Of a stretch of 64,000 nucleotides of DNA, positions 9,801-58,444 are shown one piece after another. The notes beneath the pieces were generated by a model that did not search any database, was not told the origin of the DNA, and was given only the letters and a program-made list of their open reading frames with translations. The DNA comes from Azolla caroliniana (Eukaryota > Plantae > Polypodiophyta), in the NCBI GenBank assembly GCA_043228905.1, contig JBHGNT010000003.1:25978001-26042000 (forward strand), given 5' to 3'. The stretch's first letter is position 1; each line of letters opens with the position of its first letter. The position numbers and the translations under genes are program-made.

Positions 9801-11248
9801 GATTTTAACACGACAAAAATATTTAAATGAACATAATAAAACATGTAAGTATATACATAAACACACACACACATTTATATTTATTTATTTATTTATATAT
9901 AAACACAAAATAAGATCTTATGACAAGCATATGATGACCCTAAAATACACACATAGAAAGAGGATATTTTGTATACAAGGTGACGTGGGATGCCAACGAC
10001 CAAGGTGAGTTATGATCTTCCATAGACTCACCATGCCAAAACTCAAGGACTTACCCTTCTTTATACTCTAATTTCCGCCCCTTTTCTTCCTAATCATGTC
10101 ATCAATGTAAACGGGCTTTCCTTGCTTATGTATTCTAATCCTTAATCTTTTCTCAATTTACATTGTAACTTTTTGGATTTTAGAACTCCTAATCACTTCA
10201 TGTGTGTGTGTGTGGATTTGTTGATATCTCCTCATTCAATATCATATACAATCTTGTTTGTTTTAGGGAAGAATTGTTGAAGGAAGGGAAATGATTTTTC
10301 TCCCCAATTTCTTGCAAGTTGGTTCCATTGACAACAAAGAAAAAGTGCGCGGTTAGGTTCTCCTAAAAAAGAACACTCTTGTGTCCTTGTGGAACCTACA
10401 TATTCTCTCTTTTTGTGTAGACTGAGCATAGGGTTCACACAACATCAACACTTGAGTTTCCCCAAATCCTCTTGCCCATAATACTAACTCTACCTAGTTA
10501 ATAATAAAGGATAGGGGGCACTTTATGGTCCCCCAATACCCCTATTAAGGGAAACAATGTTATACTTCTTTAGTTGTCACAAACCCTATAAGGCTTTAGT
10601 TCTTAACTATTGATCATAAGCCAGATGTAGTCATGAAACATGGTTAATTGTAATTTGTGGGAACCACCCTTTATTATTTAGGAACAATCAATGGCCAATG
10701 GGCTTGTAATGTGAAAAAGACCCTTTAGGAATTCCAACTTATATAAAAGGGAGAAAGATCTAATGTAAGAGAGACCTTTGGAAGCCCTAACTTTGTGTTG
10801 CCTTTTGGTCCTCATTCTCTCCCCTTTACATCCACTAAGAGTTTATTTCCTCCATGTATGTTTCCAACCTAATCAATCAAGATATACATGTTTCTTATTT
10901 AGTAATTATCTATTTAATTAAGATACCTATTCTTTTCATATATAGTGATTATCTATGGAATTAAGACTAACATATTTCTTAATTGGTGTAATAATTTATA
11001 TTAACTTAAGAAGCCTTTAGGGCTTTTGCAATTGCATGGAGTGGAGATTAAGTGCTTTTATGTGTTGATGTGTGACATAGTTTTTGCTATTGAGAGTGAC
11101 TTCCCCCAATCCCTTGGTTACCCACCAAGAGGAAGGCAACCCCTTGGGACTCAATAGCAACCCTTGAAAGTTGGAAGTGCAACACTCCAAGTTATGAATC
11201 ATGTTAATCCCTTCACCAAAATGTGATTCAACCGTTGAGTATTAACAA

Positions 11249-11561
11249 GGGAAAAGTACCAGGATACCCCCGAAAGTTCGTCTATTTACCAGAATGCCCC
11301 TGGAAGTTCCAAATTTACCAAACTACCCCTATGTCCAAAAAATTACACTTAATAAAGTAATTATACACTCAAATATTTGGTAAATAGGGCTAGTTCAGGT
11401 CCATTTCTTCCATCTTTGGTAAATAAGGCTTGTAGATTTTAGTGTATAATTACTTTATAAAGTGTAATTTTTTGGACATAGGGGTAGTTTGGTAAATTTG
11501 GAACTTTCAGGGGCATTATGGTAAATAGACGAACTTCCAGGGGTATCCTGGTACTTTTCCC
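11249..11561. mobile_element. Mutator-like MITE (313 bp)
   Basis: About 120-bp terminal inverted repeats GGGAAAAGTACCAGGATACCCC.../...GGGGTATCCTGGTACTTTTCCC; 9-bp TSD TATTAACAA / TATTAATAA. Confidence 0.92.
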
Positions 11562-12232
11562 TATTAATAAATTATAATGGTACTTACTTACCTTATTTTG
11601 TAACATATACATCCCCTTCCTTTCCCCTTTGAAACTACAAAAACTATAGAGCATATAGACTCCCAAACCACACATAAGCATGAATATACACACTCTTATA
11701 CGCTTGCAAATCTTTCCACTAACACACAAACACATCTTTTGCCAACTTCGATGAGTCTTTAGCACTTGATGATCGCTAATTTCGGCAATTTCACGCAACT
11801 CATAGAAGTCCCTCTACTCATCAATTTAAAAGTTAGATGAATTGTAAATTTAAAACTACTTAGGCAAGTCCTACAATTCATCATTTAAGAATTTAGACGA
11901 GCCTTCAAAACTTGGACGAGTTGGACTCCCCTAAGTCAAAGGATTGCACATCTTTGGACTAGTTTGTACTTGTTGACATAATGTGGGCTTGACAGATTAT
12001 GACATATATACTTTGTGTTGGTCGCAAATCTCAATGGACTTTGTGACGGATTTTTGGAACGAGGCAAAATCGCTAGTGGAATTTGATGTGAGCTCGGGTT
12101 CCGACAAGCGCATGCATATAAATATGCACACACATGAATATTTACATACACGCTCACAAATAATTTAAGAAAGTAAAATTCAAGCTCTAAAAAAGGAAAG
12201 CAAGTGTAGACATCGGCATCCTCAGCCACAAC

Positions 12233-14947: not shown

Positions 14948-15582
14948 AGTGTTTGCATGCATTGTGAAATGTTTGTCCACCTAGCCCCTACTGATCTTGG
15001 GAAAATCAATTATTTCCTTTCAAAATAGCATGGTTTACCTTCATTCCCATGAATATCAGTTTGCAATGATACATGGCTAGCTTTCATGGTCCATTGTTAG
15101 ATTGTATTGTTGGCGCCTTTTGAACCATCAATATGCTATATTTCTATGTTTTTCCAAATGCATTTTACACGTCTCTTCCTCAAATTTGGCTAGATGATCC
15201 TTTTTTATTCTTTTGAACAAATAATAGAAATAGTATCTAGTCATACCAATAGGTATACTGTATAAGCCTCTAGAATTGTATCCTTCTAAGGAAAGTCTTT
15301 TGCTATATTTACCATCACACCAAATGTTTCTAGGAGGCCTTCATATTTGTATTGTGACACATGGGCTTTTACGGGGAGAAAAACATATTTTGTGGGTTTG
15401 TATATAGCCTCCATTAATGGCATTGTGACATATCTAGGAGTAGGGAAAGGCTTGGTTCAAAGCCAAAACTCACTCGTTAAACCGTTTTTAAATAATTTAG
15501 TAGTTCAACTTGGCTCGGTTTAGTCTTGAGCTTCCTTGATCGCGTTGAGCTTCATGCTTGATGCGTCGAACCATTGAACAAG

Positions 15583-16021
15583 TGTTGCCGTTTAGGAACA
15601 CGGTCCGTGGTTAGTCCTTCGACCTAGACCTCAAGGTGGGTGTGGAATAACGAACAGGGTTTAAGCGTAATGCGTAAGGGGAGAACCTCTGTATTTCCTC
15701 CATGTATAAGGGAAGACGGCTACAACCGAATCCCTATCACAAGTTACACTTACGTACTACTACGCTTAAGTATCCGAGACACCGACACTGAATTAGCCGC
15801 AGCTATACACAGAAACTCAGAGAAGATAGAATTCTATTATCAGGCGTTCTTTACATTTCCAAATATTACACGCACCTCCATAAGAGGTTTTCTGCCCTTT
15901 ATATATGCAGGGTCTAATTAGCCGTTCACGCTTCCTGTGTGAACCGTTACATGCGTTATGATCTTATATAGTTTCTTATTCCTACGCTTTTGTCCGTCGG
16001 TTACTATTCCGGCGGACAACA
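15583..16021 (-). repeat. 3' LTR of the large Gypsy element
   Basis: Direct repeat of 30710-31148 with roughly a dozen substitutions by eye; TATATAAAGG TATA-like box on the minus strand. Confidence 0.95.
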
Positions 16022-16511
16022 CTTGGCACACTGCGGGACAGTGCCTTTGCACGTCGGACCCATCCCGTTAATCTTCTTCCAAAATGGCCTGGATGTTCGG
16101 CTCTGTTGTGGTGTCCTCGTCCGGAGTTGATGTAGGGCTCGTAGGTGCATCGTGGTGCGGCTCCTCTGCTTGGTTGGCCTGGTTTCTCCCAGAGTCGCCT
16201 TCGCCGTGTGCGGGTGGTCCGGGTACGGTGGGCTCTTCTTGAGTTTGTGGGCTGGGCTCCGCCGTTGGCGTGCTTGCAGTTGGTTGCAGCTCAGCCTCTA
16301 TTGTTACGTCCTCCGCGGTGTTGGCCGTTTTTGTGTGTCCCTAGGCGTGGGGCGGGGATTCCGCCTAGTCCGCACTATTTTCCGCGTGTTCTGAAGATGG
16401 TGTGGGCTGGTGCGGCTGGACCTCTTGTTGGGTAATGGTTTCACTGTCTGTTCCTGTGGGGAACTCCGCTCGTTGGTCCCCGCTATTCTCCCCCGTTGTC
16501 ATCTCTGGTGA

Positions 16512-19019
16512 TCAGGCATGAGGTTCCTCTTCTTCGGCTGTGACCGGAATTGGTGTCACGCTAGGTTCCTCGGTTGTGCACATGTTGCCGGCTTGTGTGA
16601 TCTGGTGAAATAGCTCCTCCTGACTTTCACCAAAATCATCTAAGAGTTGTGCGAGTTCTTCGGAGTGTTGGTCTGCTAGCGCACGATAGTCTTGCGCTAG
16701 GTCCTCCCGTACGGTCGCAATGCTCTCCTCGTTTAGCTTATAAAACCCTCGGCCGTCTTTCCGCCGGTTCTCCCAGTCCGCACGATACGCGTGCAATTCC
16801 GCTACTTGGGTTGCCCACGCCATCCATCCTTTGTCCAGCGCCGTTTTCAATTGCGCTGTGAACCTTTCCCAGTTTGTTTGGAGAAGGATGCGCACGTTAT
16901 CCGTGATGGCCTGGCAGCGGTTGCGTGCGTCTTCCATTGACTTCTGGAGATTTGCGATTTCCTACTGTTTAACGGCTGCCGCTTCCTCATACGTGGCCTT
17001 CAGGCCCGCCCACAGCTGGGATTCCTTTGCATGTTGTTCTTCTAATTTCACCATTTCATTGTTTAGGCGGATTTCGAGTTGATGCCTTCTGTCTTGTTCG
17101 ACCACCAACTGCTCATCGAACCATACCTTCTTTTTTTCTAATAAGGCCCGAAGTCCCGCTATTGCCGCCTCCGATTTCGTCGCGTCCTCTCGTAATTGGG
17201 CGTTGTCGTCTTTTGTCCGGATGTGCTGAGCTACCTCCGTAGCTAGTTTCTCTTCAAGAGTTTTTACGGCCTTCCGTCCGTTAGCCCGTATCTCCTTTTC
17301 TCTGTCGGAGGATTGGCGTAGTTCTGCTCGAAGACGGTCAATTTCGGATTCCGCTAGCTGCACGACCCTTTTTGCTTTTGAGGCGATGGCGGTCTGAGCC
17401 TCAATTTCTTCTTTTAGAGCGTCGATGGAGTGGTTCCGTGGCGGGGTTCCATGTTGCGCCGTAGTCACGTGAACTTCCAACTCCGCGATGCGTGCGTTGG
17501 CTTTTTGTAGTTCAGCTTCGGTCAATTTAACCTTCTTCCAGACATTCTTATTTTTTATGGCCATCTCCTTGGCGCCCGTGCTGACCTTTGCCAGTTCTCG
17601 ATGGACTTCGACTAGGGCCATGTTTAAGGGTGGTATTTCCATCCCTACTCGCCGTACCCCGACGTTCCTCTATCTGCCGACCCTGGCTAGCCGGTCCTCA
17701 TCGTCGCTCTCCGTTGTTTGTGTTAGGGCGCGCTCGATCATCTAACGTTCTGCATGCTCCTCGGCCATTCGTTGGGCGGCTTTGACCTGTTGTATTGCCA
17801 GGAACTCCATGAGCTCAAAAGAGGTACTGAACTGCAAGAGGGGGCTGAATTCGTGGGCCGTATCCGGGATATCCGAATATGCCAAAACCTCGCTTTCCAC
17901 CGTCAATACGGCTTTCCCTCGTTGGGACTGAGTCGTAATAATCGGTCGCGGCTCTCGGATGATTTCGAAGGTGGTATTCGGTTCTGCTGTTGCGGAGCCT
18001 TCGCCTTCGGTCGGTGCCTTCGGAGCCGTGGGGGCGTTTTTTACCAACCCCCACCCATCTTTCTTGTCCAATCTGCGTCGTTTTGGTCTAGGGCTTTCTC
18101 GCCGTGTTTCGGTGTCAGGTTCTGGGGCTGCTTCCATGGAGTGTCTCGGTTGTTCCTCCTGTGTCGCCCGTGTGTCCGGCTGGTCGGTAGGTGTTGTCCT
18201 TGGGTCTGGCTGGGCCGGTTGGGGTTCCTCCCACTCTGGGGCCGCTAACTCCGCTAACTTGCGTTTCGCGGATCGCGGCGGGGCCGTGGGTTGGCAGGGC
18301 TACGATGCTAGCAGGCCTCAGGGTGGAAACAGTACCGTAAGGTATTGTTGGATGATTGGCCTGAGCTTTTTGCCTGCTTGGTACGCATGCAAGCCTTCTC
18401 TTAACGTCGGCCCTGTGATGACCCCCCAATCGACTGCACGCCCTTCAAAGGTGTCGATAATGATGCTCGCCTTCTGCTTAGGCATCCCGTATGCGTTGAC
18501 ATGGACGCAGCCGACTTCCAGTAGGAACTTGGCAACTTCACAGAAGAAGGGATCTGGAATCTGTTTTGTTCTATAGGCCTTGGTGGAGGATGAATATGGT
18601 CCAAAATACCGTTGCAGCGCCTCTACAGGAGGTATTTCGAAATGTCTTTCGCCTAGTGAGGATAGGTCCAACTTCTTCCGAATGGAAGAGTTGGTGACCG
18701 TGTCTATGTTAAGCTTCATGGCGATGTTCATGGCGTCCGGGTGCGGAGGTGCTTCTGCGACCCGGATGTAGCCATCCAGGCGTTTCTCTACGAGCCATCG
18801 GCGTAAGGCAGTAGAGATGAAAATCGGCATCGCTAGAGTAGGTTCGTGGGGAGGAGACGGGAGGTTGTGGTGGGTTGGAGCTCTGAGATAGGATGGGGAA
18901 GAAGGTAAGGAGGACGAGCGATGGGAGCGCTGATAGCTAGAAGATGAGTTTCTGCTTTGTGCAGACGATCTTTTGTTTCCTTCTTTTTGTGGCTTAGGGT
19001 TCATTGGGCGGTGAGCCAT
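16512..19019 (-). pseudogene. Extra ORF downstream of pol (~835 codons; globular domain, disordered linker, long coiled coil), 5 in-frame stops
   Basis: ORFs 18318-19019, 17742-18137, 16962-17642 and 16512-16937 share one frame, separated only by TGA/TAG codons. Confidence 0.8.
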
Positions 19020-19249
19020 CGTGGTGCCGCGTGTTCTTCAACTAGGAGTTTGTGCATGCCTTTAGTCGTTGTAATAGTCACTATCTTCTCTTCTTTTTTT
19101 CTTTTTTTCTTTTTCTTTTTTTCTTTTTTTTCTTTTTTTCTTTTTCGTAACGGTTATTTACAACCTATTTTTACATTATAGTACAAATGGGGCTTGTCCA
19201 TTTTACGATGCAGGTTCTCCGGCTTTGTACCGTTCGGCGGTGAATGGGT

Positions 19250-20767
19250 TATGTGGTGTAGGGCCCAGGTAAGGTTTGAGCCGAAACCCATTCACTTTTT
19301 GCCGTACTATTTCTCCAGCCAACGTTCCTAGTTGGAACGTGCCCTGTTCCGCTCCAATTATCCAGTATGGGCCGGTCTAGCGGAAATGTAACTTCCCCGG
19401 CATATGGCCCATGCACGTTTGAAAAACTAGCCCCGCTCGGCCCACGGTGAACTCCTTTTCCCTTGCGCTCCGATGTTGATCGACAAACGCTTTACGCTGT
19501 CGCTGTTCCAACACAGCCATGCTGTGGACGCATTTTTTCCCTAGTTCGAGGAGTTGGTAGAGCCGTTCCTCCTCCGATTTGGCTTCTGATAATCGGTTCC
19601 GTACCTGAATGCGCAAACTAGGTACCCGAAATTTGATTGGCATCACAGCCTCTAGTCCAAACGCTAGCCGGAACGGTGTCGACTGTATGCTTGTTTTGTA
19701 ACTAGTTCTGTACGCCCATAACGCACTCTGGAGTTTGGTATCCCAGTCCGTTCTATTTTCATTGACGGTTTTCTTCAAAATGGTCTGTAATGTTTTGTTC
19801 GTGGATTCTGCTAATCCATTCGCCTGTAGGTAATATGGCGTGCTCTTCTTGTGGACTACTGCATAATGTTGTGTTAGTTCCCGAACCACCGTATTGAGGA
19901 AGTGGCTCCCCTGGTCACTGATCAGCTCAATCGGACAGCCGAACCGGCACCAGATGTGCTCGTAAAGAAATTTGGTTGTGACGGCCGCCGTATTTTCACG
20001 TAGTGCCTTTGCTTCTACCCATTTGGTGCAGTAATCCGTGGCTACCAATATGTATTTATTGCTCGTACGGGCCGCTGCTGGTGTGAAGGGCCCTACAAAA
20101 TCCAATCCCCACTTTTGGAAGGGGTCTAGCGGTAATACGGGTTGGTGTGGCATCCTTGCGTCCTCCGCGGGCTAACCCATCCGCTGGCACAAATCACACT
20201 TTCTACAATACTCGGATGCGTCCTTCTGCGTTATTGGCCACCATAAGCCCGCATGCCATACTTTGCGAGCTGTCACGTCGCCCGCGTAATGGCCACCAGC
20301 TGTGCCGTAGTGTGCCTCCCCTAAAACTGCTTCCTTCTCATCCTGACGGACTCCACGTCGCCAAATGCCGTCACTTCCTTTGTGATATAAATTTCCTTCG
20401 ACGAGGCAGAAGTGACGGCTTCGGACGGCTAGTCGTTTCTTCTCGTCCATTGTGGTGGAGGCAGTCCTGTAGTTAAAAAGTACGTCATTTCCATAAGCCA
20501 TCGGTCCGGAAAGGTGGATTCCGTTTTTTCTACAAGACTTGTCCCTACTCGCCAGATGTCGGCGTCTGGAAAACCGTCGTCGTCTTTCTATACTGTTTCT
20601 CCATTCTCAAGTCTGCTCAAAAAATCCGCCACTGCGTGTTGCGTCCCTAGTCGGTGCTGAATTACGAACTCGAATTCCTTGAGCAGCAGCATCCATCGCG
20701 CCAATTTCCCTGTCAAGGCTTGTTTCTCCACCAAATACAATAATGCCGAATGATCCACGTGGAACGT
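19250..20767 (-). pseudogene. Outer Gypsy pol: end of RNase H and integrase (HHCC, DDE, GPY/F), disrupted
   Basis: TFHVDHSALLYLV...ARW...ADFLSR; AHYG..GGH...CDLCQ; WGLDFVGP...LISDQGSHF...ANGLAE. Confidence 0.9.
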
Positions 20768-21470
20768 TGTCGAGGTATTCCTCGCGGATGCGTGGAATGA
20801 GGCGGGACCTCGGGGGTCTTGTACCGAAGAGCAAGAGAGAAAGGAGAAGGGAAGGGACCCACTACGTGCGAGCGTAGATTCACAGGGACACGGCCCTTCA
20901 ACACAAAGACACGAGTGGGACACCGACACAGAGAGACGCGAATGTATGTATATATATATGTTAACAAGACAAACAACAAGAAGCACGACGTTGGTTACAA
21001 TCGAACAGGCCGGCGAACAGATGCCGATGCCTGTTTGTAAACGTACAGAAAGGAAGAAGTAGGTTGGAGGTGCTGCCGGAAGCACTCGGGCCTTCCTTAG
21101 AGCAGCGCGAGCCTCCCAAAACCTGCACAGAACGAAGCTACCGAGCTTGGCAGAGAGAGAAACCTTCCCCCAACAACCCGACAACCCTTTTTCCTCTCTA
21201 TCCGCGATCCCCCCTCTTTTTTCCTCCTCGTCTCCCTCCCCCTCTAGGCAAGAAGGGAGCCGTTTCCTATTAACTTCCTACCTACCGAATCTACCTACCT
21301 AGGATCTTCTATGTACAACATAAGGCGTAATGCATGAAGAGCCGGTTCCTACGCTCCAGTGCACCGATTCCGCTTGTGGACGGTTTTCTTCACGACATCC
21401 GCCCCCACCTAACCGCGCATCCACCGGCATGCACCAAATTGAGTTGGGATGGAGAAAACCGGTCCAGCCT

Positions 21471-24400
21471 TCATTCCCCGCCCGTCGGTTCTTCCTCGGT
21501 TTCGGATTGTTCGTTGTCGCGGTCCAGGTTAACCGGATCTGGCTCGTCGTCGTGACGCTTCTTGAACGCTTTGATCCGCTTCCCAGCTACCGGTATCGCC
21601 ATTCTCGTGCCGTCGAGTTCCGCCAGATGGTACGTCCCGTTGTCGTTGGCGCTTTGGACCACGTAAGGCCCGAACCACCTTCTTGCGAACTTCCGTGTCG
21701 CTCGGTGCTGGTTGTCGAGGCTGCTGTCGTAGACTAGCACCCAGTCGCCTTCCTCAATCTTCTTTGGTCGGAGCCGGTGCATCCGGTCGAACCGGGCTTT
21801 GTTCCTCGTCCTTGCCACCCGAAGCTTTCCCGCAGCCTGCTCCACGTCCTCCGGTCTTCGCTCGAGCTGTCGTATACGCGCCGCCAACAGTTCCTCCCGG
21901 CTCATCTCGTCTCTCCAGTCCACGGTTTCCCACGAGGAGATCATACGTTCCATCGGCATGATCGGCTTCTGCCCAAACATGAGCTCTGCCGGCATGAATC
22001 CGGTTACCGAACTGTGCGTAGTTCGGTCCGCCCACAACGCGTAAGGCAGCAGTCGCGGCCAGTTCCCGACTTGACCTCTGCATGCCCGAACTAACGCCTT
22101 GACGATCGGTCCGTGTCCGCGCTCCACCTTCCCATTCGCCTCCGGATTGTACGCAGTGGTAAGCGAGAGCTTGACTCCTAGCCGGTCGAACAGCTCCTTG
22201 GCCTCTTCGGCGTCCAACTCCCCGCGATCAGCCACGATCTTCCCGACGCACCCGTACCGGCATATCACGTCCTCGATCAGGAACCGACATACGGCCGCGG
22301 TCGTTTTGTTCTGAAGGGCTCGGCCTTCCACCTGGTTCGTCAGATCTTCCCGAGCCAGGACCAGATACCGCATCTGTCCTACGCCCATCGGCATCGTCAC
22401 CAGATCTACCATCCATTTGAAGTGGATGGTCGGAGGGTACGTAGGGTGAAGCTCGTCCCGATGCCGGACTATGGAGTGCATCTGACAGCTCTCGCAGGTT
22501 GTCACGAACCGATGCACGTCCCGGTACAGTCCCGGCCACCAGTACTTCCCTTTTATCTTCTCAAACGTGGCCCACGTTCCACGGTGTCCAGCCCAAGGGC
22601 TGTCGTGGTAGGCCGTCAGCAGCTCCTCCTGTTCTTCCTTCATCGCCACCACCCGGAGCGGGACGCCGTTCCTCTTCTTCGGGTGCTTCCATAAGTATCC
22701 GTCCCGGAGAAAGAATCGGTATGCTTTCTTCCGGATCCGGTTGGCCTCGTCTCTCGTCCATGACTCATCCGGCGTCATTGTCCTCAAGAAACCACCGATC
22801 CGCAGCCACTCGCCGTCGTACTTGCTCTCGTCGAAGCTGTTAAGTGCCGGAGTGCTCGTCCCATCGGTCGTCACGTACGCCGCCTCGAAGAAGTCCACGC
22901 CGACTTCTTCGTCCTCCGAAACCATGCCGCCCTCGTCATCAAACCTCGCCCTCGAAAGCATGTCGGCCATGGCGTTGTCCTTTCCGGAAATGTGCCGTAT
23001 TTCCGGGTCCAGGGACTTGATGTACGCTATCCACCTGAGCATCGCCAGGTCCGGTGTCGCGCATCCGGAAACCATGCCGAGAATTGGCAGGCAATCCGTC
23101 TCGATAATCACTTCTGTCCCGATCAGGTAGTCTTTGTCGGCCTTTACTGTCGAAACGATACCCCAGAGTTCGCATTTAACCTGGGCGTACCCTCGCTGTC
23201 GCTCACTGAGGACCTTTGCGCCGAATCGGATCGGGAACCGGGTGCCGTCCTCGTCTTCTTGGTTGACGACCCATCCGATCCCGGTCGGGCTCGTATCCAC
23301 CGTTATGTATACCGGGGTACCCTTCTCGTAGACAGCCTTCCGGAGCGCCGGTGCTGCCGCAGGAGCTTCCTTCAGCTTCTGGACCGACTCCGTGTGCTCT
23401 TCTCGCCACTCGAATATCCGCCCTTTCTTCAGCAACCCGTATAGCGGCTCCGCAACGTGGGCGTAATGCGGGATTCATATGTGGTAGAACGCGCACGCCC
23501 CCAGGAACCTCCGAACTTCCGTAACCGAGCTACAGTCGGTCTTCATCGCGGAGATGGCTTCTACCTTTGCCGAAGACGGCTTCCGGCCATATGGTCCACA
23601 TAGGTGTCCGACCACCAGGATTTCTGATTGCCCGAAGGCCGATTTCTCCCCGGGGAAGGTGAGCCTCGCATCCTCTAGCCTTTGTAGCACCTTCTCGCAG
23701 TCGTCGATGTGTGTTGCCACGAATCGCCGGCATCCGTCCGGTCCGAGTGTTGCGTCCTTCTCTTCCACCGGGCACCCCTTGATCGGGATGTCGTCTAGAA
23801 ATGGCATGGTGACGTCTGGGATGCAATCCCTCAGTACCTTGTTCATTGCATTCACCATGTGGGCCACCGAGTTGGTCCCTCCTTGTGGCAGGGTACACAT
23901 TCGCACTAGGCCGAGGGGAGTTCGCATCGTCGTAATGTCTCTGCTCTCCACGGCTAGCTGGAACTGGTCGTACCCCGAGTACAGATCATCGACCGAGTAA
24001 ATCGACCTTCCGACGAAGGCCTCCACGAACTCGTCTATGGTCGGTCCGATTCCTGCATTCCGAATGGTCACTCTGTTGACCGGCTGCAGGTCCTGAATGA
24101 AGCGCAATGTTCCGTTTTTCTTTGGTACGGTAAACCATCGGTTCGAGTATGGCGCACTCGACGGTTCGAGAATACCCATATCGACTTTCTGCCTCAGTAG
24201 CTCCATCAACTCCGGGATGTGAGCTCTCGGTACTGGAATTGGCTTGAGATTCCACGGCACATGCGGTACTGTGAATATCACCATCGGCTCCACGATCGTC
24301 GGGTCTACGCACCCGATCTCTTCCGGTGAGAATGCAAAGGCTTTTCCGTGCCTTCCGAGCATTCTCCGGAACCGGTCTTCCTCCGCCGGCAGTAGGAACC

Positions 24401-24974
24401 CGCCCCCACCGATTTTGAGCTCCCGGAGCGTCCCGTTGGTGAAGGTGTGTCCTATGCAGACCGGATCTCGTAAACTGGGGTCCGACGCAACCCCTCTGAT
24501 TCAGGACTCGCTGTCCTCCGGTAAGGGTGCCGCGACTGGCCTTACCTTCCGGTCCATAGTCTTGTACTTCGTGCTAACTCGGGCCGTCCGATCCGACCGG
24601 AGCCCCTGGCTGAAGTTCGCGATGACTTCGTACATCTCTTCGGAACATACCGGTATCGTCCGGTCTTCGTTAAGGTCTTCTCCGGCTACCTTCCTCAGCA
24701 TCCCCAAGGTGTCGTCGAAGGAGACCGCCTCCACGGCCCCGCTGATTTCCTCGTCCAGGCCGACAACTCCGCACGCTCGAAGTCACTCCTCCGCCCTTGC
24801 CCTTTCTCGGCCAACGATGCCGACTAACATACACCCTCCGTTGCCAGAGAAGCAAAATCTTGTACTTATCGTACAGGGTTTCTTCGGTTTTGGTTCTATC
24901 GTACAGCTGTGGGGTCTTTCCCGAGTGTCCGGACTATCTCGGCCCCACGCCTTGGCAGCCCTCTCTAAAAATCC
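21471..24974 (-). pseudogene. Nested element pol (RT-RH-INT), one frame with 3 in-frame stops
   Basis: LPQGGTNSVAHM and PFLDDIPIKG (RT); TVDTS...ETDCLPI...ADMLSR (RH); H..H..CESCQ, WMVDL, ADRG, NGKVERGH (INT). Confidence 0.9.
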
Positions 24975-26915
24975 TCCCGGTTCTCGCCACCGAGGGATTC
25001 GCGGTTCCGCTCGTGGTTTGGTCGCACCGTCAGAAATTGGACTGAATGGCGCCCGTCCTGGCTCTTGACCCTCGCGTAGGCCGAACCGTTGTCCAGCACT
25101 TTGGTCTCCATTCGCACTGCTGTGATGTATGGTTCCCCTAATATGACCGGATGCGAGGACATCTCCTGCACGAAGAAGTGCTGGTCAATCTCAACGTCGC
25201 CGATCTTGACGCGCACATTCGGGCAGGCCCCGTGCAGTTCCTCGGTGGCGTGCATCGCCGCCCGTATCTTCCACCCGTGCTTGGTGTTGATCGGCCATTT
25301 TCCCCTTTTGTAGAAGTCCATGGACATCAGGTTTATTTCCGAACCGTGGTCCACCAGTGCCACCACCGGTTCCTGAACATCTCCGATCTTTACCGGGGTC
25401 TCCGTGGTCGCTCGGGCCCAGTGCGGCCACGAATAGTGGCTCTCCGCCCACTCATCTTCCAGCGCCAAGTCGTCGATGTGCGTCGTCCACACCTCCACCG
25501 GTCTTTCCGGTTCCGTCTCCGTCGACAGCCTCTTCCGTTTCACCAAGTCCACAATGGAGTCGTGGAACTCCTTCTTGGCGATCCCTAGCACCTCCCGCAA
25601 TGACAGCTCCACCTTGCTATCAAGGATCCGTTCTTCTAGGACCTTTCGTAGGTCCGTGGTCCTTTCTATTTCCATCCCCAGTCGGTATCCGCCCTTCCTG
25701 GGGTTATCTTGCACGCTAGACCCACCGGCTTCGTTCCGTTGTTGCCGGAATCGGGTCTCGTATCGTTGTGAGGGCCCGACCGCTCCGGCTTTCCCCACTC
25801 GTTTGTCTTCTACCAGAGCCTCGTAGTTCCGGCAGGCGGCTTCTACGAAGCCCGTCTTCTCCTCGACCGGATCGCTCCACCCGGTTATTTCCCGGACCCG
25901 TCTCTCAGCGCGGTCCGTTTCATCTTTCCTTAGTTGTGCGCCGGCGAGACCTTCCAGCATTGCCGACAAGAATCCGTCTTTGCTCTCCTTTCGGGCCTCG
26001 CTGCCCCCGACCCGAATGCCGACCGACGCCGAGTAGTGGATGGCCTCCACGTGTCGGGCCGCTGCCTCTTCCATCAGTCTCTTCATACCTCCTCGCCCGT
26101 CGTTTCGGTTTAGGGCCCTTCTGGTGTCGTCGGCGTGCACCCGGCCTTCCCACAGGTACACCACCCAGTTCCTCAACGCTTCTGCGAAATCACCGCAATC
26201 CTTCCGGATGTGGCCGACCTCATCGCACCACATGCACCTGTTCCCTGCTGCCGGCCGTCGGTCACGAGCCGGTTCGCCGCCTTCCCTTCGAGTCTGGGCG
26301 ATCTAGAGATCCTTTATCGCCCGCGTCAACTCCTCCAGCGCTGCTCCTCCGGACGAGTCATTGACCATGCCGGTCGAAGCCGAACCGGTTTCGAGCCACT
26401 CCCGGGTCTCTGCCCTTCGCCCTTGTGGTGCCGGTTCAAGCCTCCTTGCTGTGACAGAGCCCGCTCCGGTCGCCCCGTTGTCAGCCCATTCTCGTCGTTT
26501 GTCGAAACGGCCACAAACTCTCTTAACCGCAGTCCAGTCGGTCGTCAGCCCGTCTTCGGTTTCTAGCAAGGAGCCGACTTGATCCCGGTCCCGCTCGTCC
26601 ACCGACTTGACGAACAATAGGACCCGGCTCGTATCCAGAACGGTTCGGTCAAGCGCCGAAAGGCGTGCAAAGCGTTCCTCAAACTCCCAGAGGAGTGCCG
26701 ACGCGTTTCTTCCTTTGTCGGGGGACTCCACCCATTCCATGAAGTCCCGTTTCGAAAGCCGGAGCGCGTCGTCCAGCCCGTATTTCTCTAGGAGTCGGCC
26801 TTCGAACTCCTCCCAGGTACGGCTCTCCGCCCGTACCTCGAGCACCTCCGCATGGATGCTCGGCATCGCCACTCGAGGGAACCCTGCAAGACGCCTCTCT
26901 TCCGGAATGTACCGC
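24965..26915 (-). pseudogene. Nested element ORF1: partial gag, CCHC knuckle, aspartic protease
   Basis: CMWCDEVGHIRKDC; ALVDHGSEINLM; ILGEPY; one TAG at 26303; ends GAG GAT TTT TAG. Confidence 0.85.
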
Positions 26916-29855
26916 AAAATCGTCTAGAAAGACTTGCATGAACGCCAGAATGTATTCCCCAAAGATCTCTGTAATCGTTCGTTGAAATGTTGTTGGCGCT
27001 GTCTTTAGCCCGAACATCATGACGACTGCCACATATACTCCCCAGTCTGTGACAAACGTCGTCTTCTCCTGGTCCTCGGGGTGCATGCGTACTTGGTTAT
27101 AGCCACTGAAGCCATCTAAGAAACTATACATCGCATGGCTTGCGACGGTGTCCAGCACGCTATCGGTGAAGGGTAAGGGAAATGCGTCCGTAATGGTTAT
27201 CGCGTTTAATTTTCGGTAATCTACGCATACCCGTATTTTGCCGTTTTTCTTTGGGACAACCACTATCGGGCTTAGCCATGTCGCTTGTTTAACTGGCCAT
27301 ATGAACCCCGCCCTCAGGAGCTTGTCAATTTCTTCTTTCACTCGGGTCGCGTAATTGGGGTTCATGCGGTAGCGGCGCTGCTGGACAGGTTTCGCGTCAG
27401 TTGCTAAATTGATCTTATGCTGATAGAACTTGGAATCTAACCCCTTCATGTCCTCATGAGCCCAAGCAAACACATCTTTATATTCCGTGAGTAGTGCGAT
27501 CATTGTGATTCTCTGGTCCGGCCTTAATTCCTTTGCGATGGAGAGGAATTGGGGCTCCGATTCCGTACCCACATTCACTTCGTCGAGAGCGGAAGCGGTG
27601 ACTCATCGTGACATCTCCATTTCCCTTTCGAATGCCGCCCGTGCTCTGTTGAGTTCCAATATGGACTCTGGGTTTGGTTCGTACGGCTCTTCGTGCGAAA
27701 CAGTGGTTGTAGTATATTCTGCCGCAGTTGCGATGACATCTATTTCGAACAGCGGAATAATCCGAGGATGTTCGTCCAAGTACGCTTCCAATTCGGCATC
27801 CTCCACCCCAGCCAGCATATTTATGTCTTCCACGTATAACGGTGTTATCCCCTAGGTTGTGGCGTGTTGCCTTCCGTAGGTACGCGAACCTTAGTGCGTC
27901 CATGCCGGAAACTAATACACTCGTGTTGCCAGCTCTGCTTGATATTTGTTGTCCGAAGCCATGGTCTGCCCAGAAGCACTGGGTACGCTCCTGGGGCGTC
28001 CAAAGCGAGACGACCGTCGATATGTCGAAGCGGTGTCCGCCCATGATGATGCCTATTTTGCGAATTAACCCCAACGGTCGCACTGAGCGGGTATCTGCCA
28101 TGCGGAGCCAGAATGGACACGCCTCCCATTCGGAAATGCCTAATTGTTCGCAAGTTTTTGCGCTAATCACATTGACACCTGAGCCGTCGTCGATTACGCA
28201 TCTAGGAACTTCCTGTCCGTGCAATATTACTGTAATAGCCGGGTTGTGCTGATCCACCACCGGTGGTCCATCGTTGACGTCTGTCAGGTGTGTGGCAACG
28301 CTCGCCCCGAGCATGCCCGCCACTTGTGCTTCCATGGTCTGGCGGAAACGTGGAACTAGCTGTAGCAGTTTTTCCATAGTTAACGTGATTTCACAACCTG
28401 CTAACACCTGCCAAATGGGGTCCGGCCCCGATCTTTCGTTCTCTGTTTGCTCCATTGTGTTCGCGGACTCCTGTCGCATACGTTCCGTATTGGTCGCGTT
28501 TGCTTTTTCCACCCAGGCTTGGGCTTGTCATCGTACCTCGTCCTACACAGCCCAATCCGTCGTTTTTGTTTGCTGGCGTGTTGTGACTTGTTTCACCTCC
28601 GCCGTAATCGTATTGACGGCAGGCCCCTTTCCCTTGCGTGCTAGGCATTGCGTGGCATAGTGTCCGGGTTGATGACAAATAAAACAATGGATGCTTGATT
28701 CTCCCTTCTCAGCCCCAGGTGGTGTGTGCCGCTCTCCGGGCGCTACTTGCTCTTCGCGGTCCGGCCTCGTTTGTCAGAACGTACGCGGTGGCTGTTGTTG
28801 GTCCCGTCGTTGTTCCTGGTGCCGCTCATCCCCCGAGCTTTCGTCGTAACGCCGGTGATCCCTATATTGCCGAGGCTTACCCCGATAGCTATTGAAGCCG
28901 CCCCATTTGTTTGTCGGGCGTTGATGTTCGTATCGCCGACCCCCTTTGGCGTAACTCGGATGTCCACGATAATCCTCGTCCTTTGGGTCGTCCTCCTCGG
29001 ACTCGTTGTGATTCCGGCGATTCCGGTTGTACCGGTCCTCCCACAGGTTGCGATCCTTATACCGAGATCGGTCTTCTTGCCTCCTTTGTTCCGCCCAGTG
29101 CGGTTGACGTTGTGTGTCCATGCTATGGACCGCGGGAGTGGCTCTGTTTAACATATTGTACTCGCATTGGTCGATTGTGTGAACCTTCGAGTGGCAGATT
29201 GGGCAGTGGATTCACATATTGCACTCCACCGCGGAATGCCCCGAGTTCAAGCAAATCGTGCACTAGATTGCTTGACGAAATTGGCGTTCCTCATCCTGAG
29301 GTAACGCTTGTCGTAAGGATGACATCGAAAACCTCTCCTCCTCGTCATCCAACTCGAGCTATAACACTCGTTCAATCACCATATCCGCCGTTTCCCCTTT
29401 CACGCTATTGTTGTTGAGCGTTGCCCGGATGGGCCGGCGTAACGCTGCCAGAAATGTCTCCCAAGCCTCCTCCTCCGCGGGGCTTTGTTCCAATTTCTGT
29501 CGTAAATTTTGGAAACGTAAGCTGAAGTCTGTTATCGTCTCAGTCGGTAGTTGCTTAATCGTATAAAACTGCCCGAGAATCTCGCATTGTGGAACCCTCC
29601 GATGGAAGAATCGCAAGAAAGCGGACTGCAGCTGATCGAAGGTTGTTATGGCTGGTAAGTCCATCTGTGAATGTCAAAACGCTGCACGCCCATCTAATGT
29701 TAATCCGAACTCCGTCATTTTCGACTAGTGTGCCACCGTCTCAGAGAGATTCTGCGCCATGTGGTTCGCATTCCAAACATTCAAAAACATGTGAATATGA
29801 GTTGCGGCGTCGGTTTCACCGTTAAAGCGGGGGTAGGCAAAGGCCATAGGGGGAG
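26916..29855 (-). pseudogene. Outer Gypsy gag, zinc knuckle, protease and RT N-terminal half (frameshifted)
   Basis: Retrotrans_gag-like TTFDQLQSAFLRFF; CFICHQPGHYATQC; IDDGSGVN; YKDVFAW...RVCVDYRKLN...FGLKTAP...FLDD. Confidence 0.9.
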
Positions 29856-29955
29856 CTACGGCGGATCGGAAAAGGTAACAGGGTGGCTGCGGTGAGTGTG
29901 GTCCCCGCGTCCCGTCGAGGTAGTACTAAGGTCGCTGATGCGCGGCTTTTGCCGG

Positions 29956-30565
29956 TGTCGTGAAGAAAACCGGCCATAGGCGGAATCGGAGAGAAAGCGC
30001 GTAAACCAGCCCTTACACGGATGGACGCGTGACTTGATATTTGTACACGAACCGGTGGATGTAAATACTAAGCCGCACGCATTTATTAGGGGGGGGATTG
30101 TGCATATCCCGGTCAGAGGGACAGGGAATAAAGGGAAGAGGACAAGGGAAAACGGGTATCGCGCATTGGGAAAGAAAAAGGGGTTGCTGCAGAACGGAAG
30201 GCGGAGCTCTTTCTCTTCGACTCGAATCGTCGCTCTCTGTGGGTGTCGGGAGGTCGGTGCCTCTGCTTTGTAGACAAACCGTGTGCTTCCAGCAGAGTCG
30301 CTCCCTTTCCCCTTTTGTTTCTTTGAGTCGTGTGACTGTCGTCGGTGTGCGCGAGTAGGGTCCCCGTGTCGGGTCCGTCGCCGCTTTGTCGGTTGTAACT
30401 GTCGGAGTTTGTACTCTCTTGTCGTTATAACTAAGTGTTACGTTCTATATCTCTCTTTCTCGCTTCTACGTGTCGGTGAATCTATCTCTCTCTCTCTCTC
30501 GCTCCTCGGTCCAAGACCCCCGTGGTCCCGCCCCTTTCTACACGTACGCGCGTAACAACGCGACA
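29956..30565 (+). mobile_element. Solo LTR (610 bp) related to the nested Ylt1-like LTR
   Basis: Starts TGTCGTGAAGAAAACCG and ends ..AAGACCCCCG.GGTCCCGCC..CGACA, like the 20768-21397 LTR; flanked by CCGG on both sides. Confidence 0.88.
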
Positions 30566-30688
30566 CCGGGCGCGTTCTTCTGCTTGGCGTGTGACGGACC
30601 TTGTTATTGGCCGGTCTTGTCTTGTTAGTTCTCTGGGTCTTCTGCAGCTAAACATCCATTCGTTGTTGCTCGTCTATGAGGAAACACA

Positions 30689-30705
30689 GATCACCAGGCG
30701 TGCCA
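30689..30705 (-). promoter_or_regulatory. Primer binding site of outer Gypsy (TGGCACGCCTGGTGATC)
   Basis: TGG-starting motif 4 nt after the 5' LTR, on the coding strand. Confidence 0.7.
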
Positions 30706-30709
30706 AAAG

Positions 30710-31148
30710 TGTTGCCGTTTAGGAACACAGTCCGTGGTCAATCCTTCAACCTAGACCTCAAGGTGGGTGTGGAATAACGAACAGGGTTTAAGCGTAATGC
30801 GTCAGGGGAGAACCTCTGTATTTCCTCCATGTATAAGGGAAGACGGCTACAACCGAATCCCTATCACAAGTTACACTTACGTACTACTACGCTTAAGTAT
30901 CCGAGACACCAACACTGAATTAGCCGCAGCTATACACAGAAACTCAGAGAAGATAGAATTCTATTATCAGGCGTTCTTTACATTTCCAAAAATTACACGC
31001 ACCTCCATAAGAGGTTTTCTGCCCTTTATATATGCAGGGTCTAATTAGCCGTTCACGCTTCCTACGTGAAACGTTACATGCGTTATGCTCTTATATAGTT
31101 TCTTATTCCTACGCTTTTGTCCATCGGTTACTATTCCGGCGGACAACA
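30710..31148 (-). repeat. 5' LTR of the large Gypsy element
   Basis: Direct repeat of 15583-16021, followed by TSD ACAAG. Confidence 0.95.
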
Positions 31149-31510
31149 ACAAGCGAGAGAGGCGAGCACGAACAAGAGATAGAGACGGTATATGATTTAA
31201 GAAGCAAGAGTATACAATACAACATTTTACTAAACTTAACAATGCTCGATCGCAAAGATTAAACTTTTTTTTGTTTTCTTTTCCCAAAAAAACTCCTTCC
31301 ATTAGCTATAAAATTTTACAAATGCGAAGGTTATTATTATATAAATCTCAGTATGGACATGATAGTTCCATCTTATGTGGAGGCCCAATGACTCAAGAAA
31401 GGGAGAGGACAATCATAATGCTAATTGTTGGATGAAGGCTAATCGTTGTCTTTCGACTCCATCGGATCCGCTCATAAGGCCATCGTATTGGTTGATTGGC
31501 TACAACTTTA

Positions 31511-33835
31511 TGTTGAATATAGGGATATAATGGTCGTATCACATTGTCCCATTTGGACAAACTAGAGTAGGACATATTTGTAATATGATCAAAGGCAAGT
31601 TGCCCTAGCTCAATTAGTATATAAATGAACTTAAAACTAGTTTGTAAAATGATGTTGAGGTAGATGCCGCCATTCTTTGTAACTTCTTGATTTGAATATA
31701 CAGTTACATCTTTGTGTGCCTCTCTATCTCTCTTTGATTGTTCTTGTTGGTCTTGTTAAGTCGTTTCAATTCCTCCCTGTTCATCTTGTTTATTTCTATC
31801 AATCTGATGTTCTTCATCCAATAGTTTTGTTCATGTTTATCTTCGCTGGCGACCGTCTCCAACATTTGGTATTAGAGCGAAGTTGGTATCCATTGTCGGC
31901 CGTCATCAATCCTATCATTAGCACTTTTGTTTAGGCCGTTGAAGACTTCAAGTTTTATGAAAACATATTGAACAAACTTTCCAAGATTTCTGCTAGATAG
32001 AAATCTTCCGATTGGCAACTACAAATTTTCATTCTGTGAGATGAATAGCCACTTTGCTTATTTGTACCCTATCCACCTAGACAAAACTTCAGGTAAGCTA
32101 GTCGTTTGTAACCCCTCGTTGGTTGCAGTCACTCAAAGTGGAATCTTGATTTAGTCGGCACCATCCGTGCTCAATTCGACTAGGAGACATTCGAGCAGAC
32201 CACTCAACTCTATTCATCTATCCGTCGTAGCCACTCCAAGTAGGATCAACAATCCAATCGACATAGTTTGTGCCCAATTTGACTAGGCACCATTCTGGAT
32301 AGACAAGTCATTTCAATTCCGTTTTCGGCCATAGTCACTTTGACCAGGACAAGCCGACAACCAACTTGGTTTGTGTTCGACTCGACTATATCAAATCCAG
32401 GTGAATCATCCGGTTACACCCACTTATTGATCATAGCCACTATGGACAAAACTTTCAAACAAGTCAGCTCATATCAAAAATGGTCTCAACATCTGACTCA
32501 TAAAAGATGAGTCTTAGGAAGTTCAATGTCTATAGAACTTCAATTTCCGGAAGGAGCAAATGCAAGACTATCTTATCGTGAAAGGTCAGATCGATCCAAT
32601 CGAAACAAAAATCCTCCCAAAGAGTACAAGCCGAATGAATGGACGAAAGCTCATATCAGAAATTGTCTCAACATCCGACTCATAAAAGATGAGTCTTAGG
32701 AAGTTCAATGTCTATAGAACTTCAATTTCCGGAAGGAGCAAATGCAAGACTATCTGATCGTGAAAGGTCAGATCGATCCAATCGAAACAAAATTACTCCC
32801 AAAGAGTACAAGCCGAATGAATGGACGAAATTGGATCAGATAGCACGAGCCACCATTCGGATGCACTTATCCAAATCGGTTTACTACACTGTACAATTGT
32901 GTTTGACAATATTTCAATTATGGAAGATGTCGAACAGTTATGAGAAGAAGGTGGCCACCACCAAAATCTATCTTTATTTGGTGATTGCAGAACCTTCGGA
33001 TGAAAGAATCTGACTCGGTCCAAGCACATTTAAATGAGTATGAAAGTATAAACTCCCAAATTTCAGCTCAGGGAATGGCGATTGACGACGAGCTGAAAGC
33101 TCTTTTGCTTATGAGCAGTCTCCCCTTTTGCTTATGAGCAGTCTCCCCCCTTTATGGGAAACTTTCGTTACTACCGTGTGCAATGTGTCAATTGTTGTTG
33201 TCAAGTAGTCTGAAGCCACGAGCTTAATTCTAACGGAAGATGCTCATAGAAATCGTTCGTACATGATTCGGCTAATGATATGTAGTACAAAGTTTGGTCG
33301 ATTGACCGAACAGTCAGAGAAGAAGTTCTTCCCAACAACCGAACAATGCTTGAAGCCAAAGCAAGTGAAGAGACACGAGAATTTGCAACTATTGCAAGAA
33401 ACCTAGACAAATCAAGACCGATTGCCGTGCCCTCAAGGCCAAGAACAACTTAACCTATTCAACATTCAGCATCTAGGAGTTCGAACTAGCTAATACGGCT
33501 CTGGTTATTAAGCCCATGCCAATTGAGGAAAACAATCAATCAGTTTATCATCTCTTTGTATAATCTATATATTTGTTTTCTTTATTACAAATTCTTTGAT
33601 GTATACGCCCATTATTGGGGAGTGTCGAATACGGGGATACAATGGTCGTATTTACATTGTCCCATTTGGACAAACTAGACTAGAACATATTTGCAATATG
33701 ATCAAAGGGCAGTTGCCTAGCTTAGTTAGTATATAACTGAACCTTGTAATTAGTTTGTAAAATGATGTTGACGTAGATGTCGCCATTCCTTGTAACTTCT
33801 TGATTTGAATGTACAGTTACATCTTTGTGACAATG

Positions 33836-33883
<48 letters not shown>

Positions 33884-33997
33884 ATCTTGCTAAGTCGTTT
33901 CATCTCCTCCCTGTTCATCTTGTTTATGTCTATCAATTCATGTTCTTCATACAATAGTGTTGTTCCTGTTTATCTTCACTTACGAATGTCTCCAACA
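31511..33997 (+). mobile_element. Non-autonomous gag-only Ty1/Copia derivative
   Basis: LTRs 31511-31864 and 33623-33997; tRNA-iMet PBS TGGTATTAGAGC; PPT TGGGGAG; TSD CTTTA/CTTCA; gag remnant EWTKLDQIARATIRMHLS and degenerate knuckle CNYCKK; no pol. Confidence 0.85.
32466..32830. repeat. Tandem duplication, 2 x ~182 bp, in Copia gag
   Basis: AGCTCATATCA...GAATGGACGAAA repeated. Confidence 0.9.
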
Positions 33998-37994: not shown

Positions 37995-38770
37995 CTAACA
38001 ATTATATAGGACAATGAAGCAAGGCAAAACAGCCCTGGAATTAAAGACTACGAGCTCTTCAAGATCAGTGAATTGGGTAGCTTCACCAGAAACTGAATCA
38101 TAAACACTTGGAATGTTGCCATCTTGAGAGCTATCAGAAGAGAGGCCCATTTTCTTCACTCGGCCAGCAATGACCCGACAAACAATCATTGCTCGCAGCG
38201 TTCGTCTCTCTCCATCAAGTTTCCGTTCTTTCGCAAAGCAAACCGAATCATGTGCTTTTCCACTGCTAGCATTTGTATAGATCCCAGGATGACCTTTCAT
38301 GGCAGGGGCAAATCCATGCCTTAGTATGTTACATACACCACAAGATGATGATGGGCATAAAGATGTCGACGAAGACGGTGATGGGGAGGATGACGATGAT
38401 GAGGAAGATGATGTTGATGAGTATGGGTATGATGATGATGATGATGTTGTTGTATATGATGATGAGTGTAATGATGGTGATGATGATGATGATGATGGTG
38501 ACATTCCCATACTGCATGAAATAGTGGTGCTGTAGAACCTTAGCAGCTCATTCCCATCAACAAGACATCTAGAATTCTTTCTAGAGGTTTTGCTTGCTTT
38601 AGCTTTCACCATGTCTCTGTACTCTTCAAATCTGGCTAGTGTTTTAGGGCTGTTGTGGACCTTGAAGATGGACTCTGGTTTCACACTGGGTATGTCTTGC
38701 CTCAACCAACTTGTTTGGAATATTATCTCCACTATGCTTCTGGCTGAATCACCCTCTTTTAGCTCTGTAA
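37995..38770 (-). CDS. Plant C2H2 zinc-finger / PARP-like (ADP-ribosyltransferase fold) protein, exon 2
   Basis: Acceptor tttccag|TT. VTELKEGDSARSIVEIIFQTSW...FEEYR...DGNELLRF...GIYT.ASSGKAH...AMIVCRVIAGRV...EELVVFNSRAVLPCFIVLY, then stop. Confidence 0.9.
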
Positions 38771-38837
38771 CTGGAAAAACGCAAAATGAAACAATGGAGT
38801 GACACCAAACATTAGCCTGATTAAGTTTGGTAAGAGC

Positions 38838-39010
38838 AGCCATAGCAGCAGTTTTTTTTAAGACCATTTCTTTTTTTACACTCAAAACAAATTAACATTT
38901 TCATGAGTCATGTTATAATGCAAAGAATAGCAGCAGTTTTTAAGACCATTTTGTTTACAGTCAAAACCAAATTAACATTTTCATGAGTCATGTCGTAATG
39001 CAAAGAAGGC
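38838..39010. repeat. Tandem duplication, 2 x ~87 bp, in intron
   Basis: AGCAGCAGTTTTTAAGACCATT...CATGAGTCATG..TAATGCAAAGAA occurs twice. Confidence 0.8.
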
Positions 39011-39704
39011 ATCAACAAGAACATCATTTTCATGGTAGCACTTAACATAACACAGTTAAGTGCAAAAAACAGCTTCCTCGGATAAATTTCAACTACTAAT
39101 TTTACGAAACAGAAAGACTGAATATTTGACCTTACCGTAGAGACCATTGATCCTGAATTACTATCTCTGAAAACTGTAAATTTAAATTTTCACTGGAAAA
39201 CTACCAACTGCAATGCAGTCCATACGAGTAAAAATCTATACCCTGGTACGGAAATTTTGGAACTTTAAACTTGAATTAATCTATTGACCAATCAAATCTT
39301 CAAATATAAAGCGATTACATACATAACATTTGTAAAAAAAACTTTCCATACGCTTGAACCCTAAATTCCCTAATCTTTACCTTCCTAAAACTTGGAACCC
39401 TCAGCCGGAAACCTTATTACTCCTGCAACAAATTCTAATCCGTAACTCTAAACGTCCAAAACCTGGACATGAACCACAAACCCTAACCAACCCAAAAACC
39501 TCAAAAACTCTTTGCAATTCTAAAATCCTGAAAAATAGCCCAAAACCTGCGTAGCTAGGGCAGACCTAAATCGAGAACAACGAGATGTACCTCTGAAATA
39601 AGTATGTAAGTCTTAATTCATTTCCACAACCCCAAAACAGTTTCCAATCACAACCATAGAAATACAGAGAATCGTGTTAATGTATAGCAAGTCACAACAC
39701 TCAC

Positions 39705-58391: not shown

Positions 58392-58440
<49 letters not shown>

Positions 58441-58444
58441 ATTG

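Follow-up and report, generated by a model that had tools for sequence, protein, structure and literature searches.

A tRNA-Arg(UCU)-complementary site occupies the place of the polypurine tract in a Ty3/gypsy lineage of Azolla caroliniana and probably serves plus-strand priming

Introduction

How does an LTR retrotransposon start its plus strand when no polypurine tract (PPT) precedes its 3' LTR? The available sections of PMC5371799 and PMC10886601 take it as a general rule that retroviruses and LTR retrotransposons prime their second strand from a PPT. The question is raised by an element in a 64,000-nt stretch of the Azolla caroliniana genome (contig JBHGNT010000003.1, positions 25,978,001 to 26,042,000; hereafter the window). 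An initial annotation of this stretch, made from its letters, described a PBS behind the 5' LTR, gag-pol on the minus strand, no 3' PPT, and a PBS-like motif on the opposite strand, 2 nt from the 3' LTR. It proposed that a tRNA annealed to the motif could prime the plus strand, or that the motif could pair with the element's own PBS.

Results

Structure of the Element in the Window

The element spans window positions 15583-31148 on the minus strand, with LTRs at both ends (Table 1) that are identical at 427 of 439 positions. Pfam searches of the window frames placed gag-pol on the minus strand, and coordinates and frames agree with the layout first described. Read on the minus strand, the 5' LTR ends in CAACA, followed by CTTT and TGGCACGCCTGGTG; read on the plus strand at the 3' LTR, CAACA is followed by CT and TGGCACACTGCGGGAC, which is the PBS-like motif at the distance of 2 nt that had been reported.

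Table 1. Features of the element and its insertions (window coordinates)
Feature	Position	Strand	Remark
TSD ACAAG, left	15578..15582		flanks 3' LTR
3' LTR, 439 bp, TG...CA	15583..16021	-	
Spacer of 2 nt, U3 end to inverted tRNA site	16022..16023	+	CT here
Inverted PBS, proximal block TGGCACACTGCGGGAC	16024..16039	+	complement of tRNA-Arg(UCU) 3' end
4-bp hairpin insert, at tRNA nt 59/58	16040..16053	+	stem 16041-16044 with 16049-16052
Inverted PBS, distal block (TCGGACCC...)	16054..16066	+	complement of tRNA T-loop and T-stem
3' extra ORF region, sense orientation	16068..18833	-	broken in window copy
RNase H end and integrase	19200..20767	-	broken; start approximate
Nested 5'-truncated gag-pol fragment	~20768..26906	-	distant Ty3/gypsy lineage
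gag, protease, RT of element	26907..29809	-	stops and frameshifts
Solo LTR of another family, in 5' leader	29956..30565	+	CCGG flanks
Hairpin and CGAGC block behind sense PBS	30668..30691	-	CTGTG / CACAG in sisters
Sense PBS TGGCACGCCTGGTG, 14 nt	30692..30705	-	complementary to tRNA-Arg(UCU)
Spacer CTTT of 4 nt, U5 to PBS	30706..30709	-	
5' LTR, 439 bp	30710..31148	-	
TSD ACAAG, right	31149..31153		beyond 5' LTR

The 15.6-kb span of the element is due to the insertion of the solo LTR and the nested gag-pol fragment; its sisters are 8.7-9.4 kb long (seven with both ends in view, of ten fetched). The nested fragment brings its own G-rich PPT and LTR and has taken the place of ~0.6 kb of RT-RNase H sequence in the element that it entered. 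A distant Ty3/gypsy lineage, characterised by a DUF4100 gag match, the G-rich PPT and the 4-bp CCGG flanks at the solo LTR, has struck the window element twice. Distantly related RT/integrase sequences also lie inside the loci L190, L278, L280, and L281, and this distant Ty3/gypsy lineage may prefer the tRNA-site lineage as an insertion target. The 3' extra ORF region matched no Pfam family above the curated cut-off; in relatives this ORF encodes ~1000-1200 aa, and its first part has 116 homologues, none of them named.

No polypurine tract abuts the 3' LTR in the window element, its sisters or a second family described below, which bears out the reported absence in the window copy and extends it to the sisters. 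The closest purine run of at least 11 nt ends 502 nt short of the 3' LTR of the window element, and the purine share of the last 15 nt before the junction is at most 0.67 across 132 sites. A G-rich tract precedes the 3' LTR in two other Ty3/gypsy elements of the window. A chromovirus element at window 50691-58522, with a G-rich PPT, a chromodomain and an internal 243-bp repeat, provides a local PPT-bearing control; its PBS is presumably of the tRNA-Met type. Scans of viral contigs for the motif and for the RT returned no matches.

Conservation of the Inverted Site

We sampled sisters from the best 30 of 1447 candidate junctions, which comprised 29 sisters. The motif was kept at all 29 of these sister junctions and read exactly TGGCACGCCTGTGGGAC in 18. 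A pattern consisting of the LTR end plus the motif gave 256 exact genome matches versus 0 for the reversed control, and a chance origin of the motif was dismissed on this basis. The spacer at the U3 end reads CT, CC or CA in sisters, and also CG. Both motifs were present in all ten full-length sisters, and the 5-bp TSDs were exact in five of the seven sisters with both flanks in view and differed by one base in the other two. At the opposite end of the element, the sense PBS read TGGCACGCTTGGTG in 21 of 31 LTR-adjacent sites (30 loci, after removal of two chance pattern matches). The alignment inside both LTRs of other copies that the initial annotation had proposed thus revealed a conserved motif and no PPT in the sisters.

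The window copy itself has decayed. Its proximal block has 16 nt, compared with 17 nt in sisters; relative to the family form TGGCACGCCTGTGGGAC, one nucleotide is deleted and two are substituted. When the whole genome was searched for this variant with one mismatch allowed, the window copy alone was returned, indicating that the CACTG/CAGTG hairpin is private to it. The CACTG/CGGGA/CAGTG hairpin originally drawn is hence a mutation of this copy only, and the conserved hairpin is the next one, at 16041-16052. Likewise, the suggestion that transposition took place with the site as it now stands is valid for the family form of the site, but not for the window copy's own letters. The distal block complementary to the T-loop, found here, was absent from that first description.

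We next considered 81 sites selected by pattern, namely four further sites in the same genome, whose inserts differ in length, and 77 from contigs of metagenomes. All 81 are 17-mers, one base under a perfect 18-mer, which the pattern permitted, and 73 come after AACA plus 2 nt. The 3' ORF was in view at 50 of them, and in 50 of 50 cases the site was antisense and interior, at the 3' LTR. A plus-strand element in which the inverted site is the true PBS was rejected, as the ORFs all run in the opposite direction (50/50 sites antisense). Because the 81 sites had been chosen by their motif, we sampled a second family by protein alone. The site was present in 26 of 30 loci, and the remaining four were truncated or rearranged before or within the junction, none of them with a PPT. 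The hairpin stem displayed 16 double changes in 17 sites, a score reached by none of 500 shuffles and far above the slid controls; these 17 sites were hand-picked from the 81 for distinct hairpins, and kinship among the sequences inflates the score. The initial observation is confirmed and lineage-wide, and the arrangement is apparently undescribed.

Match to tRNA-Arg(UCU)

The 3' ends of host tRNA-Arg(UCU) genes, with CCA, are complementary to TGGCACGCCCGGTGGGAC, and gene variants ending in CAAGCGTG or CAGGCGTG fit the sense PBS exactly. Both motifs, which were to be compared with host tRNA 3' ends, fit tRNA-Arg(UCU). In the inverted site, the proximal block of 17 nt lies against the last 18 nt of the tRNA with one tRNA base bulged; the 4-bp hairpin follows at tRNA nt 59/58, and then the T-loop/T-stem block. 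The tRNA nt 58 is normally m1A, which stops RT. The sense PBSs share this split layout, with 13-14 nt, a hairpin, and CGAAC or CGAGC.

The duplex of tRNA-Arg(UCU) with a sister's site was predicted at -50.5 kcal/mol; this and all other pairing energies use RNA parameters as a proxy for tRNA on DNA. The distal block taken alone, in one sister, was equalled by 56 of 2000 shuffles, a modest significance. The two changes most often seen relative to the exact tRNA complement, C to T at position 10 (48/132) and A to G opposite nt 55 (78/132), leave pairing of the tRNA with minus-strand DNA possible, through wobble or an isoform. A mismatch opposite T54 occurs in one clade (6/132 sites).

The L187/L188 family has a PBS that fits tRNA-Arg(UCG) at 13 of 13 nt, while the 3' site is still that of Arg(UCU). 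The non-autonomous elements L276 and L290 show the same combination of an Arg(UCG)-type PBS and an Arg(UCU) 3' site. These two elements (L276:2365-5505 and L290:6742-9441) are ~3 kb each and have a spacer of 4-5 nt rather than 2. Elsewhere in the genome, many tRNA genes (Leu, Arg) stand in tandem arrays together with decayed copies, at L076-L089, L220, L221, and L223 and in clusters on C4, C5, and C7; tRNA-Arg(UCU) variants with an altered acceptor stem are among them.

Classification of the Lineage

Pfam was run on the window frames and on the relative L146. The domain order is gag (with three zinc knuckles), PR, RT, RNase H and INT, followed by one long sense ORF. The gag-PR-RT-RH-INT order, the direct LTRs with TG...CA ends and a TSD, and the tRNA-complementary PBS are features of Ty3/gypsy elements. 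Pfam detected no Chromo match in the window element or L146, while an element at window 54953-56296 has one. There was no family match for a second (archaeal-type) RNase H, the single RNase H being followed directly by integrase. A non-chromovirus without aRH and with extra ORFs has the layout of the Athila clade. The Athila ORF-1 domain PF03078, which occurs in only 16% of Athila, was undetected in the window element and L146. The extra ORF region of ~3 kb departs from the short Phygy/Selgy layout, where the polyprotein fills almost all of the internal region, and the match of the PBS to host tRNAs departs from self-priming of the Tf1/Tcn1 type, where the PBS lacks complementarity to a tRNA.

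Five RTs from site-bearing elements were 64-77% identical to that of the window element and formed one clade in the RT tree together with six unnamed proteins (support 100/98). The nearest named RTs were unclassified proteins of the fern Adiantum (53-61%) and of Marchantia (54%). The nested PPT-bearing element, at 23% RT identity and on a long branch, is too distant for a sister comparison. On these domains, the lineage is classed as Ty3/gypsy, non-chromovirus and not Tat, with an Athila-like layout.

Genomic tRNA Footprints

We searched the genome with the last 28 nt of the tRNA plus CCA, allowing up to two mismatches. The 29 matches consisted of five tRNA genes and 18 PBS-side read-throughs, which are uninformative on the plus strand, and six matches on the U3 side. 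The latter, at four loci, are unsplit tRNA copies of 56-64 nt with the family's own spacer at the junction. At two of the four loci, the tRNA copy precedes a 5' LTR, and the PBS of these elements is of the Arg(UCG) type. In the element at C2:12.74 Mb, an unsplit tRNA precedes the 5' LTR, the PBS is of the Arg(UCG) type, and the split 17-mer stands in front of the 3' LTR; its 3' flank falls in an assembly gap. A very young element at C2:12.00-12.02 Mb shows the same tRNA arrangement, and its flank is duplicated over 600 bp or more, a product that fits one-ended integration. The window's own family is represented at none of the four loci. The region C2:12003663-12019180 (L187, L188) is a tandem array of three tRNA-capped LTRs with a repeated 728-bp flank, and holds a young autonomous element and a non-autonomous partner. 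In such an array, identical LTRs can recombine, which may have brought the tRNA to its position in front of the 5' LTR at C2:12.01 Mb.

According to the standard scheme (PMC5371799), the 5' U3 of a completed element derives from plus-strand strong-stop DNA. Sequence preceding this U3 is therefore most simply explained as having been joined to the 5' end of that DNA, and a plus-strand primer left attached would leave a trace such as the U3-side tRNA copies. The copies could also stem from a template switch onto free tRNA over 10-11 nt of shared sequence, made either by the minus-strand DNA itself or by way of an RNA remnant that was retained and then copied into this DNA. We infer that a template switch would likewise need tRNA-Arg(UCU) paired with minus-strand DNA at the site, a pairing that the PBS does not call for in Arg(UCG)-type particles.

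On the PBS side, eighteen LTRs (L198-L202, L204-L213, L216, L219, and L222, without L203) have the PBS replaced by a tRNA-Arg(UCU) read-through; L198, L210, L213, and L219 were assigned from short matches or ORF direction only. These copies are 28-76 nt long, some of them full length, and the RT of this lineage often passes the usual stop. Several read-throughs jump on to internal genes, giving deletion derivatives such as L193, the LTRs of which are 99.6% identical.

Discussion

Proposed Mechanism of Plus-Strand Priming

The 3' end of a plus-strand primer must adjoin U3 to produce TG...CA ends, and the CCA complement sits exactly there, 2 nt from U3 (4-5 nt in one family). Judging from these genomic sequences, tRNA-Arg(UCU) is likely the primer of the plus strand, annealed to minus-strand DNA. 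This role, as put forward in the initial annotation, is the best-supported reading of the conserved site, the tRNA match and the footprints, and none of the findings named there as contrary (a PPT in sisters, a motif that is not conserved, the lack of a tRNA match) was made. We also regard it as fairly probable that, throughout this autonomous Ty3/gypsy lineage and its non-autonomous partners, host tRNAs prime both strands via mirror-image split sites, the PPT having been lost, with two tRNA-Arg isoacceptors in some families and with fossil copies that keep the plus-strand tRNA.

In this scheme, a tRNA at the sense PBS would prime the minus strand in the usual way. RT would copy U3, the spacer and the site, after which RNase H would expose the minus-strand DNA, and a second tRNA-Arg(UCU) would anneal through ~17 bp plus 7-9 bp, flanking the hairpin. 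Extension of its CCA end by RT, via the spacer and the LTR, would generate plus-strand strong-stop DNA. RNase H would normally cut off the tRNA at the CCA junction, and integrase would trim the short end remaining, giving TG...CA with a 5-bp TSD. Where removal of the tRNA fails, RT would copy it into the left end of the cDNA, resulting in the genomic footprints. Simple priming gives no account of the base constantly missing in 81 of 81 sites; we speculate that this base deficit, together with the hairpin, may determine how the primer complex is shaped or where RNase H cleaves.

Alternative Explanations

A possible but rather unlikely alternative is that no second tRNA takes part, and that the tRNA-like 3' segment of the sense RNA survives RNase H and primes as a PPT does, RNase H cleaving after CCA through its likeness to a tRNA/DNA junction. 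The standard PPT mechanism, as given in the available text of PMC5371799, would then suffice. The CCA end falls exactly at the spacer, a T-arm-like hairpin can fold in the sense strand, and the constant 1-nt deletion would require no tRNA partner. However, a surviving RNA segment leaves unaccounted for both the T-loop complement 30-45 nt off, with its mostly pairing-compatible changes, and the Arg(UCU) site kept in families with an Arg(UCG) PBS. A tRNA before the 5' LTR would also demand two rare events, failed removal and a template switch, rather than one.

The footprints show tRNA pairing at the site rather than priming, and the site might have another job, in tRNA capture for packaging or as the primer site of an antisense RNA, with the plus strand starting from an unrecognised non-purine RNA fragment. 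We consider this improbable, since the CCA complement is placed exactly where the end of a plus-strand primer is required and no other candidate primer is conserved there (132 sites).

Pairing of the RNA's 3' tRNA mimic with its own PBS, leading to circularised RNA or self-priming, was the second function originally suggested. It was calculated at -34.6 kcal/mol in sisters of the window family and -26.1 in the window copy, and a T at position 10 is common to mimic and PBS. We rejected co-evolution of mimic and PBS as the source of this T, because the host tRNA gene variants ending in CAAGCGTG or CAGGCGTG carry it as well. In the L187/L188 family, the 3' motif pairs with its own PBS at -8.9 kcal/mol, compared with -47.4 when tRNA-Arg(UCU) pairs with the antisense site. 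Such Arg(UCG)-PBS families, L276 and L290 included, keep the same 3' site, so self-pairing is not its general function. It would also leave the plus-strand primer unnamed, and the tRNA footprints at U3 argue against it. As a general mechanism it is largely refuted by the Arg(UCG) families and is very improbable.

A local rearrangement of one copy or an assembly artefact, which the nested and broken state of the window copy and its private motif variant might suggest, is virtually impossible given the 256 exact genome sites and the 77 contigs from independent metagenome assemblies.

Two other candidate functions were rejected. Compared by eye, the sense sequence departs from the Pol III B-box consensus. 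Contrary to a kissing-loop dimer signal, the loops of the hairpin differ from site to site, and most of them lack self-complementarity.

Relation to Known Systems

In Ty1, with its boxes, and in HIV-1, with its primer activation signal, T-arm pairing past the 3' 18 nt marks a working primer site. To our knowledge, such extended tRNA-template pairings are known only on an RNA template, for the minus strand. The window lineage resembles Ty1 and HIV-1 in the predicted T-arm pairing and differs in the strand, the proposed template being minus-strand DNA, not RNA.

Yeast Ty3 has a bipartite PBS, one part of which lies near the 3' end, and starts its plus strand from a 12-nt PPT (PMC5371799, available sections). 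The window lineage shares with Ty3 the tRNA-primed minus strand, the RT-RNase H-integrase order, TG...CA LTRs and a 5-bp TSD. In contrast, the second PBS part of Ty3 is on the RNA and serves the minus-strand primer, whereas here the site is on the opposite strand and there is no PPT. As in OTA non-chromoviruses on the Athila side, there is no chromodomain and no aRH, the PBS is of an Arg (non-Met) type, and a long ORF lies between pol and the 3' LTR (PMC6317226, available sections). For plant OTA non-chromoviruses, the same sections (REXdb) give a PPT before the 3' LTR in most and describe no inverted site. The Helenus and Cassandra TRIMs likewise contain small-RNA-derived sequence within an LTR element. 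According to the available text of PMC10886601, their tRNA-like or 5S-like part lies in the LTR as a promoter, PBS and PPT are kept, and no priming role was found; unlike these, the tRNA-like sequence of the window lineage lies beyond the LTR, where it has taken over the place of the PPT, and has CCA as its end. Self-priming in Tf1 and Tcn1 is also an exception to standard priming (PMC6317226), but it replaces the minus-strand tRNA primer, whereas in the window lineage the plus-strand PPT is what gets replaced.

We found no precedent in the literature searched, which covered openly accessible papers and some of the REXdb supplementary material. The only match to "inverted PBS" concerned iPBS fingerprinting primers. 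Within that scope, the statement that no family with such symmetry has been described agrees with our search. The arrangement apparently represents an undescribed replication variant of LTR elements, for which the genomic data argue.

If the reading is true, a high-copy, recently active lineage with a tRNA in place of the PPT would be a rare exception, with an RT able to start on a tRNA:DNA hybrid and with the U3 end set by RNase H without a purine tract. This would bear on the evolution of PBS and PPT priming and predicts cDNA as a second target for tRNA fragments. Annotation tools that seek a PPT, or that take the best PBS as their guide to orientation, may overlook such elements or annotate them the wrong way round.

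Other Features of the Window

Right next to the 5' LTR, at 31541-33937, lies a short element that has two LTRs and a decayed region resembling gag. Fragments at 37995-40527 had no Pfam match; by eye, they are host gene fragments resembling a C2H2 zinc-finger protein gene, with serine-rich tracts. An inverted repeat at 11248-11562, with arms of 127 nt that are 95% complementary and 61 nt apart, is possibly a MITE.
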